Of a DNA stretch of 56,960 nucleotides, positions 643-56,960 are shown piece after piece. The stretch covers positions 1-56,960 of the forward strand of contig JALJEE010001010.1 of assembly GCA_023231475.1 (NCBI GenBank), read 5' to 3'. The first letter of the stretch is position 1; every line of letters begins with the position of its first letter. This DNA is from Seison nebaliae. Taxonomy: Eukaryota. Under the pieces are notes generated by a model. The model was not told the DNA's origin and did no database searches. It saw only the letters and a program-made list of their open reading frames with translations. The position numbers and the translations under genes are program-made.

Positions 643-1327
643 ATGAGCACATCGTATAAATCTGGAATTACTATGGGAAAGAATCGTATTACACAGATCG
701 ATCACGATTTCGTCTTGTTATTTTCCATTATCATAGTTCTTCCTAATCCTACTTTTTGATTTTTAAAGAAATTTAATGATTCTCAGGAATGTTGATTCTG
801 GACAAGTGCTTTGGCAATCGACTCAAGATTTGTTTCCCATTTTCTTTATTTTATTTTTAGATTGAAATCTCTCTTATTTTCAGTTCACTAACTGACGTTG
901 AACATGAAGGTTTAGATATGAAATATGAAAAATTTTTAAGTGATTAAAAATCTTATTATTTTCAGCAAGGATTCCCAAAAGCATCTTGAAATGTAGAACG
1001 GTGAGTAGAGAGGTGAACTTCACTTCTAAAAGAAAAATGAATCATTTCCGATTGGAACAACGAGTTTTCTTTAAAGAATCTTGTGTAGAAGAATGGTTTA
1101 TGAGTTTTGGTTTTGTTATTCCTGGAAGTACAAATACATGGCAATCAACTTTAGAAGCAGCTGCACCAAATCAAATGATACCTGCATCATTGCTCAGGTT
1201 CCTCATTATTCCATCATTTCAATTAATAAATAATCTGTTTTCTAGTGGAAACGTTGTAATTGAAACTAAATTCTTTGATGATAAAGAAGAAATTAGTTGT
1301 TCAAGAGTTCGGATATTTTATGTTTGA
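643..1327 (+). CDS. PDE6D: PDE-delta prenyl-binding protein, 5 exons (643-716, 769-831, 884-909, 966-1197, 1246-1327)
   Basis: The spliced translation matches the PDE6D family along its length: ...[21 protein letters not shown]...[23 protein letters not shown]...[20 protein letters not shown]...[13 protein letters not shown]...SRVRIFYV*. Introns are 52, 52, 56 and 48 nt, all GTT..AG. Confidence 0.95.
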
Positions 1328-2086
1328 ATATATGTCGATAGAAATTTAATATTTCATTTCAATTACTTCTTCAACGTTAATTTATCATGTCCAAATGCTT
1401 AATCTGTTCAAGACAATTCCACCATCTGACCATTCCCTTTATTAGTTTTAAATTAATTTTTATTTTTTCACATTCTTTTCCACCTAATTATTACTGTGAA
1501 TTGTGATCATAAATTATTAGAAAACAAAAAAGTTTTAGTTAATTAAATTTAATGGAAAATATTTAATTTTATGCAAAAAATTAAATTGTTCAAAATGACG
1601 TAAAGTTACAAAGAAGTTAAAGAGAAGTTTAAAAGAGGATTGATGAGAAGCTTTTCATTTGCAAATAGAAATATTTTGGAGAAGAAACTTAATAAAGAGA
1701 AAGACGAATATTCTCGATATTCTGATAATTCCATTAGCATTATTTTTATTTTGTTATTGAATGGTGCCCATGTTGTCTATGGAACATTGAAGGGGGAGTT
1801 CCTCGTTGGTTGATAACATATACATTTTATGTATTTTTCTATGATTTGCTCATATTCCAAGAAACATTCTTTCACTTATACAATTAACAAGAAATAAATC
1901 GTTGTGTAATATAATTAGAGGAGGAAGAATCTCGAGCGGACTTAATCATCGGCAACTAATCGAATGGAATACCATAAAAATTTTGTTTTCGTTTAAAAAT
2001 ATTCCAATAAAAAAAATTTTCGTCCAATTCCAATCTCTCTATAAAAATTCATTTCATCATTTTCTTCAAATCCTTTCCCCATAAAT

Positions 2087-3101
2087 ATGAATAGTCAACA
2101 AATTTCAAGTGGAAGACAAACGACAATTCAACAATTGTCGTACGCCCAATTCCTTCAACGACAACAACAAAGAAATACTCAAATAGACTTTGATGATAAT
2201 TCTACTAATTGTTTCGAATTTGAAATTTCTTTCTATTTTTATTTACTTCTCTCTTTCATTAGCATGGAAGTTCACCATTTTTCTCAATTCCATTTTGCGA
2301 ACATTCCATCGGAAAAAGAAGAGACCGTCATCGAAATATCAGACCACTCATCTACGAAGTAGTCGGGAGAGAAATGAATTATTGTTAATCTGTTCACAAC
2401 ATATGGCAGAAAGACAACAAGTAGCTAGAGATGCGGGCGTTTATGCATATCATGATGCTCATACTCGATATCCTGTTTATCTTCATCCTAAACGAACAAC
2501 ATCGATGACGACAACACAATCTATTTATCGTCCACAACACAAACAAAAATGTGAGACGAGTAGTCAACGAATCTCAAGTGTTGTGACGAATGAGAAACAA
2601 GAAACTGAATCATTGAAATTAATACCAAGACGTGATCTCGATCATGATTCGATAAAGAATTATTATGATACTTTACTTCGACGATTAGAAGTTCGTCAAC
2701 TCAATGAGGAATTACAAGATAATTTGAATGAGCGACAAGGGAATAATTCGGAAGCAGAAAGTCGATCGATTGGAGAACAAACCAAATCAGCAGGTCCATT
2801 TAAAGGATGTTTAACTTTTCGGAAAACAGAAATTCGTCCGATTCCAACTACATATACACTGAAAACTTTGCCATTCGATGAACGACGATTTGAATTAAAG
2901 AAATTGAAGAAATTAAGAAAATTCTCTAATCGTTTCCTTCACGAATTCCATTTCAATACAAAACAATCAAAAAAGAATGACAAACGAAAATGTTTATTGG
3001 AAACAGTCGACGAAAAGAAGTCGACGTCGTTTGCAGTTCGTCAAGACATTGGACGACTTTCAATGAGTGAACCGAATCTTTATTTCGCAATAGAACAGTG
3101 A
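2087..3101 (+). CDS. Hypothetical protein, 2 exons (2087-2210, 2263-3101)
   Basis: A 52-nt phase-1 GTT..TAG intron (2211-2262) joins ORF 2087 to the long ORF 2190-3101 in frame. No recognisable domain. Confidence 0.6.
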
Positions 3102-3233
3102 ACAACATCTTCTCCATCTTTCTCATCAATGTGGAGTTGAAATTAAATATATATTAATTTATCATTACTTCCAGTTTTCTGGTCAAAAAAAAAAGAGAAA
3201 TATTTATAAATATTTATTTTTCGCTTTATTAAA

Positions 3234-55104: not shown

Positions 55105-55306
55105 GTTGTGTTGTCTACCAATACTAATGTTATAACAATTTCATTCTAAACGAATTTTAAAAGTTCCAAAAATCTCCTCTATTTTTCCTTATAATCACGA
55201 AAAAGGAAATTGTTCGATGTGCAAATTCGATTTCAAATTATCCTTTTATCAAATATTAGGTTTACTTAACTTTCTGTAATACTTTTTATTGTTCTGTTTG
55301 ATTTTA

Positions 55307-55560
55307 ATTTAAGGAAAGAAATGATATTGAATCGATCGTTAAAATTTGAAAAACAAATTCCATCAACCATCATTCACAAATGTCTAAAGTCTTTATCATT
55401 TTATGGAACGAAAATAAATTCCACTTAATTATCTCATCTTAATATGATAAAAAATAAACTTATCAAGTTAAACTGATATTCTAAATATCACAATAAATAT
55501 TATTGTTAGTAAATAAAGTAATCAAAGGCATTATCATAATACAATCTCTCAATCATTAAC
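55307..55560 (+). pseudogene. Decayed fragment homologous to 25927-26182 of the orphan gene at 24671-26519
   Basis: Shares aattccatcaaccatcattcacaaat...atggaacgaaaa...atattctaaa...aatacaatctctcaatcattaac in colinear order, but the frame has TAA, TGA and TAG stops. Confidence 0.85.
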
Positions 55561-55919
55561 AGAAAATAGGTGGAACAATTGTCAAAACATTTTTTACGAC
55601 TCCATTGAAATTATAATTTCTAATTGAAGTGCCAGATCACCACAGTACTGCTCAGTTAAATTTCGAATAAATCGTACAAAATGATTTAAGAAAACATCGA
55701 GCGAGAATGAGAGTTAAATTTAGAAATTATTAGAAATTATTCACCGATAATCTTTGAAACCAATTACAATGAAAATAATTTATTTATGAAAGAAGTTAAT
55801 AGAATTTGATTAAAACGTTTTCCTTCAATTAGATTAAACGGAAACTTTAACTTTCAAAAAATATAAAAAATTTAGAACTGAAATTCGTTGAAATTTCAGA
55901 ATGGATCAACATTATATTT

Positions 55920-56960
55920 TCAGATTTTTAGTATTTTTTTTATGCACCAAAAGATACCAGCTGATAAAATTCCAGCGATCGGCACTGTCACTATCCAAGC
56001 CAATCCGATTTTTCCAAACAATTTCAAATTAACATGCTTCCTATTTTCCAGCATACCTGTAAATATAACCGCACCCACTTGGCAATGGGTTGTTGAAACT
56101 GGTAATCCCAATTTCGATGCGATTAATACAGTGAATGCCGCAGAAAACTCAATCACAAATCCAATCGATGGGGTGATCTTCGTCAAATCTTTCCCTACCG
56201 TCCTCATGACCCTCCAGCCCAAAAGCCAAAGTCCGATACTGATTCCAACACCTCCAAATGCTAAAATCCAAATTGGAGTGCCGGCCTTTACACATATAAT
56301 ATATTATTTGATTAATAAGGGATAAAAATAACTTTACTTGTAACTACACCTTGACTCCATGTAATCCAAATAGTAACGAGAGGCCCAATTGAATTTGAAA
56401 CATCATTTCCACCATGGGCAAATGATGTGAATATCGCGGTCAATGTTTGCAGAAAAGCGAAAATATGAAATATTTCCGGAGGATCATTTTTGATAATTTT
56501 TGCTTTCTCATCATGAATATCGATCGATGTCCCGTCATATCTCACAATTCTACTACTAATAACTTTTTCGTCTTTGAAACTGTCTTTCTTTTTTATTTCA
56601 CCGAAATCACCAACGAAACTTAAATTATTAGTTCCCTTATCATTTGATTGATTTGAAGTAGAAACTTCTTTTTTCTTCTTACAAATACTAAAACAATTTG
56701 GCATCTTAATTTCCAATTCATCGATATTATAACGTTTCCCTTCAGCCTCCAAATCTTCATATGCTTTATCAATCCGTTTTGATATTCGAGGAATAAATGC
56801 AAATTGAACAATTATCGCTACAATAATTGGTATTCCTATCAGAAATATACTTCTCACCCATATTGGTATATTCATTATATAAGGAGGACCATAGAATAAT
56901 ATAGAAATTAAATTTATTAGTATCGTTACAGCATAAAATCCGGGTAATATGAAGAATCCT
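55920..56960 (-). CDS. Sodium-dependent phosphate transporter SLC20/PiT, 3' part (5' end outside window); intron 56286-56332
   Basis: C-terminal PiT signature [56 protein letters not shown]. Confidence 0.93.

Follow-up and report, generated by a model that had tools for sequence, protein, structure and literature searches.

Near-obligate GTT at the predicted 5' splice sites of a Seison nebaliae contig

Has an animal rewritten the signal that marks the start of its introns? The GURAGU donor, together with the small nuclear RNA (snRNA) bases that read it, is among the most conserved eukaryotic signals, and the question is raised by a contig of Seison nebaliae, an epizoic seisonid within Syndermata, the group of rotifers and thorny-headed worms (PMC8351084). 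The contig (56,960 bases, GC about 30%) was analysed at its full length and is called the window below. A sequence-only reading had counted about 55 introns in 13 genes, all starting with GTT. Our curation led to 44 introns and not 55 (the donor posteriors of our gene parser sum to about 64); all of these start with GTT, while a candidate GTGAGT donor at 33569 speaks against "all". The donor is GTT with a weak preference for G at -1, and the proposal of a derived, near-obligate U at +3 in an animal is supported. Every intron was deduced from the DNA sequence of this one contig, and a junction is a predicted exon-intron boundary throughout.

Introns were placed with two tools, neither of which has a term for +3. 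The protein-to-genome spliced aligner admitted any GT donor, GC at a penalty and any AG acceptor, other termini lying outside its model, and the gene parser was trained on the long open frames and the intergenic DNA of the window. The curated set combines 15 introns placed by homology (four in PDE6D, five in AGA, three in a neuronal calcium sensor-like (NCS) gene, the last one of an astacin-family protease, one in the phosphate transporter PiT and SELENOF intron 2), nine from the deposited model of an equilibrative nucleoside transporter (ENT) and 20 picked from parser calls. All 15 homology-placed donors are GTT (p = 2e-6 at a background of 0.42; 5e-4 at 0.60), and removal of GT...AG at these junctions restores the conserved reading frame. 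Together with the ENT model the count rises to 24/24 (p = 5e-6 at 0.60). T follows 42.1% of the GT dinucleotides of the window and 25/43 (58%) of those inside introns, so the claim that U at +3 exceeds base composition holds for both sets, as it does for the parser set described below.

The aligner calls in PDE6D and AGA are repeats over nine junctions and not independent events. For PDE6D, 141 of 150 homologs were taken in (nine longer than 260 amino acids were dropped) and GTT was returned in 237/238 intron calls, distributed as 4, 67, 66 and 100 over donors 717, 832, 910 and 1198; the first of these, with its 4 calls, competes with a single call for a GTA. For AGA, 117 of 120 matches were taken in, the Seison protein itself and two long fused proteins being omitted, and 528/543 calls were GTT (21699, 117 calls; 21965, 104; 22198, 104; 22397, 90). 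A GTA at 21980, near donor 21965, receives 9 calls. The calls for intron 1 are split between 21366 (102) and 21356 (8), both GTT, and the deposited NCBI protein model P0122, which is identical over the AGA exon used as query and also supports the AGA introns, uses 21356. Exons of the NCS gene align gap-free to solved NCS-family chains (residues up to 35, 37-80 and 81-126), which places three GTT donors and excludes the nearby GTA and GTG options; the junction coordinates derive from these chain alignments and the third acceptor from the parser. In PiT (PDB match 6l85), position 242 of the Pfam PHO4 profile is where the matched pieces join, and in-frame GTA and GTT alternatives lie upstream.

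The claims made for single genes fared unequally. The GTT donors named for PDE6D, AGA and astacin were recovered by alignment or parser. The astacin gene carries the Pfam Astacin domain, with its last junction set by PDB alignments and the other four by parser posteriors of 0.68-0.89; a PDB search with exon 36456-36668 gave unrelated GCN4 matches only. All nine ENT introns are GTT in the deposited NCBI protein P0241, which maps back over 428/428 residues and carries Pfam Nucleoside_tran; a homolog search found the Seison model alone, so the predicted ENT junctions follow that model. Both SELENOF introns had been read as GTT, which stands for intron 2 (donor 12833), set after what we take to be the selenocysteine motif, and does not stand for intron 1, which ends at 12594 and whose donor may be 12552 or 12543 (GTT) or 12540 (GTC). 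A gene labelled SLC22 had been given six GTT introns. Its MFS_1 Pfam match is below the cutoff, and we call it MFS-like; two of its donors are confident GTT, three more (48581, 48853 and 51004) are likely GTT, and a GTA candidate lies at 48673.

The parser provides a second set of 44 donors, namely those with a posterior of at least 0.7 in 13 genes, of which 43 are GTT and one is GTG. Summed over all candidates, the donor posteriors are 53.1 for T at +3, 4.2 for A, 3.7 for C and 3.0 for G. When +3 of the curated donors was substituted by A, G or C, 35, 34 and 35 of 43 donors were recovered, compared with 35/43 in the real sequence; since recovery is equal, the parser does not favour T. A parse restricted to GTA and GTG needed forced GTT or GTC donors in 9/13 genes. 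With GTT as the only donor allowed, 12 genes lost 0-2.8 log units, and the MFS-like gene, the start of which is unsure, lost 7.8. Single parser calls are fallible, as the parser alone misses or misplaces the homology-placed donors PDE6D 1198, NCS 4231 and 4050, and SELENOF 12833. As an external control, a C version of the aligner was run on 79 metagenome AGA loci, 38 of which gave introns (107 calls, 8 of them GC; these are predictions as well). The 99 GT donors, from 36 eukaryote loci, have A at +3 in 59, G in 21, T in 11 and C in 8. In AT-rich control loci GTA makes up 32/42 donors, and T at +3 occurs in 2/27 introns of up to 90 nucleotides (nt). None of the 27 control loci with at least two GT introns is all-GTT. 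A quickly built AGA tree identified no control locus as rotifer. At the level of DNA the observation, made on predicted junctions, is real and well controlled, and the GTT rule is almost certainly genuine in this contig.

What remains of a splice signal beside GTT is little. The curated introns are 42-89 nt long (median 52), their interiors are 82% AT, and none of the 44 donors has a purine at +3 or follows GTRAGT. At +4, +6 and further downstream no difference from the intron background is seen, and +5 is marginally off it (p = 0.03, excess of A); U at +4 (14), G at +5 (4) and U at +6 (24) are near background counts, in agreement with the earlier claim of no consensus at +4 to +6. G precedes the donor in 18/44 introns, against a background of 15% (p = 3e-5), and exonic AG in 10/44. 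Acceptors are mostly YAG (TAG 26, CAG 7), with AAG in the other 11. AAG therefore outnumbers CAG, and the 3' site may be relaxed too. Five branch-point patterns were not enriched over shuffles (p 0.21-0.80), a comparison of low power in AT-rich introns, and no donor (0/44) matches the U12-type motif, which we take to be RTATCC. Eight of the 44 lengths are divisible by three, a proportion from which we claim nothing because frame-shifting introns are easier to detect.

These introns do not appear to be newcomers. In the numbering of bat AGA, the five AGA introns lie at 42/1, 131/1, 207/1, 268/2 and 313/1 (residue/phase), the first presuming the deposited model with donor 21356, and 13, 2, 2, 4 and 1 control loci share these positions. 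Since the positions are shared and 21/22 donors at them in the control loci are not GTT, the data support the proposal, already made from the sequence, that old introns were converted in place and not newly inserted, at least in AGA. The sequence-only reading had based this on a phase-1 intron of PDE6D, which may well occupy its vertebrate position too. A second AGA haplotype, found in runs X2 and X4 with 80% likeness over window 21540-22460 (depth about 3-4.5 compared with 29; exon divergence 15-18%), keeps GTT at the 3/3 readable donors, 21699, 22198 and 22397. Its alignments pass through GTT at 21699 and 22198, ending exactly at +3. None of the differences listed falls in the first five bases of intron 5, and about 38% of the next stretch differs. 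Donor 21965 is outside coverage, the contig of this haplotype ending at 21962. The stretch spanning AGA intron 4 is shorter by 21 bases in the second haplotype. Two divergent lineages have been reported for Seison nebaliae (PMC8351084). The 3/3 agreement fits selection on +3, weakly when taken alone. The GTT rule is very probably genome-wide and under selection, its extension to the lineage being drawn from this contig plus three donors on the second haplotype.

Several observations weigh against so strict a rule. At about 38% intron divergence, conservation of 3/3 GTT has roughly a 1 in 4 chance. The GTGAGT candidate at 33569 reaches a posterior of 0.85-0.88 if its gene, which is without homolog, starts at 33176, and vanishes if the start is 33664. 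GTA candidates are found at 48673 (posterior 0.57), 48157 (0.69, dependent on the start) and 24762, and for 8/44 curated introns a non-GTT donor in the same frame is available within 30 nt. "Near-obligate" consequently describes the donors better than "all".

Could the pattern arise with nothing changed in splicing? Under neutral decay, GTT would become common through mutation pressure towards AT and the T-richness of introns while recognition stayed as it was, in keeping with interiors of 49% T, with the 25/43 internal GT followed by T and with background composition from +4 onward. Such decay predicts GTT in at most 0.6 of donors, compared with the observed 24/24 and 43/44; A, moreover, makes up 33% of intron bases, yet GTA occurs in 0/44 donors, while AT-rich controls are dominated by it. 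We regard this explanation as very improbable. Equally improbable is an artefact of prediction or a peculiarity of this contig, with true junctions elsewhere or a canonical remainder of the genome. It draws on the single contig, on junctions taken from DNA, on the 20/44 curated introns that are ab initio and on the 8/44 with an in-frame alternative. It is opposed by the aligner and parser, which lack a +3 term and return GTA or GTG elsewhere, by the 36/44 curated introns with no in-frame non-GTT alternative within 30 nt, by the agreement of 13 or more unrelated genes, with either strand represented, and by the DNA being the same in two samples (S1 and S2 are identical at all curated donors within 32900-52800). 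Reads of X1-X3 over that interval behave as DNA, with no intron-skipping joints, and say nothing on expression. The least credible of all is a shifted register or a mobile-element origin. Donors displaced by one base would leave G at +6 and GT at +6/+7, found in 4/44 and 1/44; for introner-like introns, 898/946 intron pairs share no 10-base word, 4/946 share at least 12 bases, and the AGA positions are old. An Entamoeba-type donor was also rejected, GTTTGT occurring in 0/44; the lack of signal at +4 to +6 fits neither Entamoeba's GUUUGU nor a shifted register.

Entamoeba is nevertheless the nearest known parallel, as the sequence-only reading had suggested, with respect to the near-universal U at +3; the parallel fails at +4 to +6 and at +5 G, which are not conserved here, and in the intron-rich genes. 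Its GUUUGU(U) introns are, like those of Seison, GT-AG, short, AT-rich and transformed from old ones, whereas the amoeba is intron-poor, holds to a strict consensus of 6-7 bases (88-90% GUUUGU) and keeps +5 G (10.1101/2022.06.08.495308). Seison is an animal with intron-rich genes in which GTT alone is fixed and +5 G is at background. Seison resembles animals with canonical U2-type donors (AG//GU and NN//GURAG; PMC11732430) in its GT-AG ends, in having YAG acceptors for the most part, in some preference for G at -1 and in shared intron positions; it differs by lacking the +3 purine, +4 A and +5 G, and its exonic AG in 10/44 is too weak for the AG//GU class. Fritillaria borealis is likewise an animal with a genome-wide change of splice rules (in Seison extrapolated from one contig) and, a putative further likeness, has reduced N6-methyladenosine (m6A) in U6; unlike in Seison, 95% of its introns leave GT-AG and U2AF is duplicated (PMC13326754), while Seison keeps GT-AG and confines the change to +3 to +6. 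The METTL16-linked +4 A/U switch of Saccharomycotina is a donor shift that accompanies loss of METTL16 and involves no snRNA change, and METTL16 is scored Missing by BUSCO in Seison; the yeast switch concerns +4, with +3 A and +5 G retained, in contrast to a fixed +3 U and a free +4 here (PMC10581693). The copepod Eurytemora affinis is another animal with a derived donor class, GA/GG, which concerns +2 and about 12% of introns and not +3 (PMC5714493), and reduced spliceosomes without U1 are a further near precedent (PMC10158995). Our search of largely open literature, in which a prior mention may have escaped us, found no GTT donors described for Seison, Syndermata or another animal, and none are mentioned in the main text of PMC8351084 or in the available text of PMC10125929, PMC12256650 and PMC11347168, the last a 263-species intron survey. 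A GTT donor variant of U2-type splicing is thus apparently undescribed in animals.

The donor is likely read as little more than (G)/GUU, and the question becomes which component reads it. Our best explanation, held tentatively and at present quite possible, is that the U6 base facing +3 causes the rule. The +3 base lies opposite U6 G44, with which A or G interacts only weakly; m6A43 of U6, a product of METTL16, lies opposite +4, where it favours A (PMC11732430). As +5 G is at background, there seems to be no selection on the pair that either U1 or U6 makes to +5. With +4 to +6 free, the outer pairs of the U1 and U6 helices seem unselected as well, so that +3 would most simply be read by the contacts at the base of the U6 box. 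In this mechanism U1 pairing and U6 pairing to +4 to +6 would have decayed, a loss of METTL16 being perhaps involved; the remaining discriminating contact would be either a wobble between G44 and U or, after a change of G44 to A, a Watson-Crick pair, and intron length and composition would supply the rest of the specificity by intron definition. GUUUGU is described as pairing better with ACAGA in its unchanged form (10.1101/2022.06.08.495308), and in a BUSCO table of 25 syndermatan genomes METTL16 is Missing in Seisonidea alone, being present or fragmented in the other 24 (PMC12256650). There is much to set against the U6-side readout. METTL16 loss is tied in yeasts to +4 U and not +3 U (PMC10581693), and the curated donors show no U bias at +4 (14/44). 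In Seison roughly 40% of the metazoan BUSCO set is scored as missing (PMC12256650), and since "Missing" can also mean divergence, the METTL16 call is weak and serves as a lead only. The energy gained from a G-U wobble alone is small for a rule that is near-obligate, ACAGA is invariant across 240 fungal genomes (PMC10581693), and in Entamoeba, the solved precedent, it was U1 that changed (10.1101/2022.06.08.495308).

The main rival to the U6-side readout is accordingly an Entamoeba-style co-evolution of U1, whose 5' end would have A opposite +3, a core pairing from -1 to +3, and changed or unused bases facing +4 to +6. It gains from the match of the Entamoeba U1 ACAAAC to GUUUGU (10.1101/2022.06.08.495308), from the -1 G preference, which fits pairing to U1 or U5, and from the A-U pair itself, which, being of the Watson-Crick type, could account for so strict a rule more readily than a wobble. 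Yet a single change in U1 predicts GUUAGU with +5 G kept, which the 4/44 observed contradict, a helix of four bases is very short for U1 recognition, and most lineages with atypical donors kept their U1 (10.1101/2022.06.08.495308, PMC10581693); we see a changed U1 as possible but doubtful. Less probable again is that U at +3 is picked, with standard snRNAs, by a protein that lies near the 5' splice site and has diverged, such as U1-C, LUC7, PRP8, SNU23, SNRNP27 or Hub1/UBL5. Fritillaria altered its splice-site rules through U2AF paralogs and m6A with U1 5' ends alike (PMC13326754), yeast changes at +3 or +5 need stabilisation by Hub1/UBL5 (PMC11732430), and SPF45 and LSm2 are BUSCO-Missing in Seisonidea alone, SNRNP40 there and in one bdelloid; PRP8, SNRNP27, ZMAT2, KIN17, PRP38B and MFAP1, on the other side, are Complete in Seison, and U1-C and LUC7 are not among the BUSCO rows listed (PMC12256650). 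The Rfam scan of the window gave no snRNA, three weak chance-level matches only. Taken as a whole, a scenario joining a genome-wide GUU donor code, abandonment of U1 pairing past +3, loss of METTL16, a compensatory change in either the ACAGAGA box of U6 or the 5' end of U1 and conversion of thousands of old introns is rather unlikely to be right in every part. For ZMAT5 the same BUSCO table gives Missing in Seisonidea as well as in the two acanthocephalans, which hints at minor spliceosome loss (PMC12256650).

Compensatory change has been described for a few amoebozoans and is absent in several other lineages with atypical donors (10.1101/2022.06.08.495308). An intron-rich animal in which old introns turned to GUU and +5 G was dropped would indicate that rewiring of the code does not require introns to be lost on a massive scale. 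Such an animal would offer a natural test of the reader of +3, of U1 against U6 as selector and of the effect of METTL16 loss in an animal, and the GTT rule matters for gene prediction in the group of Seison.

Table 1. Genes of the window with their predicted introns (window positions; posteriors are those of the gene parser).
Feature	Positions	Strand	Introns	Evidence
PDE6D	643..1327	+	717-768, 832-883, 910-965, 1198-1245, all GTT	spliced homolog alignment, PDB match
Unnamed gene	2087..3101	+	2211-2262 GTT	parser posterior 0.98
NCS-like gene, 5' part	3999..4549	-	4456-4368, 4231-4188, 4050-3999, all GTT	
SELENOF	12495..13070	+	12833-12885 GTT	Pfam Sep15_SelM, PDB 2a4h, parser
BTB-kelch gene	13384..16598	-	confident: 16046-15994, 15151-15084, GTT	Pfam, parser
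AGA	21151..22630	+	21356-21398 (alternative 21366-21444), 21699-21751, 21965-22013, 22198-22262, 22397-22442, all GTT	
Unnamed gene	24671..26519	+	24941-25002, 25194-25247 GTT	parser
Unnamed gene	33176..35797	+	33883-33925, 33986-34030, 34157-34212, 34870-34923, 35091-35136 GTT	parser
Candidate exception within gene 33176..35797	33569..33617	+	49-nt intron, canonical GTGAGT donor	
Astacin-family protease	36031..37092	+	36085-36143, 36175-36245, 36311-36354, 36455-36498, 36654-36705, all GTT	
Unnamed gene	37486..39438	-	39422-39377, 38909-38848, 38651-38610, 37789-37726 GTT	parser 0.95-1.0
ENT	41559..43311	+	donors 41670, 41874, 42072, 42355, 42433, 42571, 42755, 42890, 43145	
MFS-like gene	48388..52185	+	confident: 50434-50478, 50710-50760 GTT	parser
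PiT/SLC20 phosphate transporter, 3' part	55920..56959	-	56332-56286 GTT	

Some genes of Table 1 have introns beyond those entered. The BTB-kelch gene has about four more without fixed junctions. Intron 1 of gene 24671..26519 may start at 24762 (GTA) or 24768 (GTT), and gene 37486..39438 has one more intron, with its donor at 39096 (GTT) or 39067 (GTA). Gene 33176..35797 gave no Pfam match, and its 5' part is without a fixed structure. In SELENOF, an in-frame TGA at 12802-12804 is read as a putative selenocysteine codon. A possible GTT-AG mini-intron of 36 nt lies at 21409-21444 in AGA, below the length of any curated intron; if it were removed following the deposited intron 1, an insertion that sets this AGA apart from its homologs would become shorter.

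Some frames of the window are without introns. The frames at 18744-20171 (mitochondrial processing peptidase beta) and 31331-32746 (PNK3P/AAA_33) are single and open, and their presence beside genes with 4-9 introns suggests intron loss over whole genes. Two similar intronless frames of 457 and 489 codons (27041-28411 and 29041-30507), with no Pfam match, look like a tandem pair. Long inverted repeats, seen by eye at about 53680-53920 and 30770-30970, give chance-level Rfam hairpin matches and are possibly small transposons, and a degraded copy, likewise seen by eye, of a section of the coding sequence around 25975-26190 lies at about 55355-55560. Finally, fragments on the minus strand of 52200-55200 with a weak Pfam match to the amiloride-sensitive channel (ASC) family and poor parser scores possibly represent a decayed gene.

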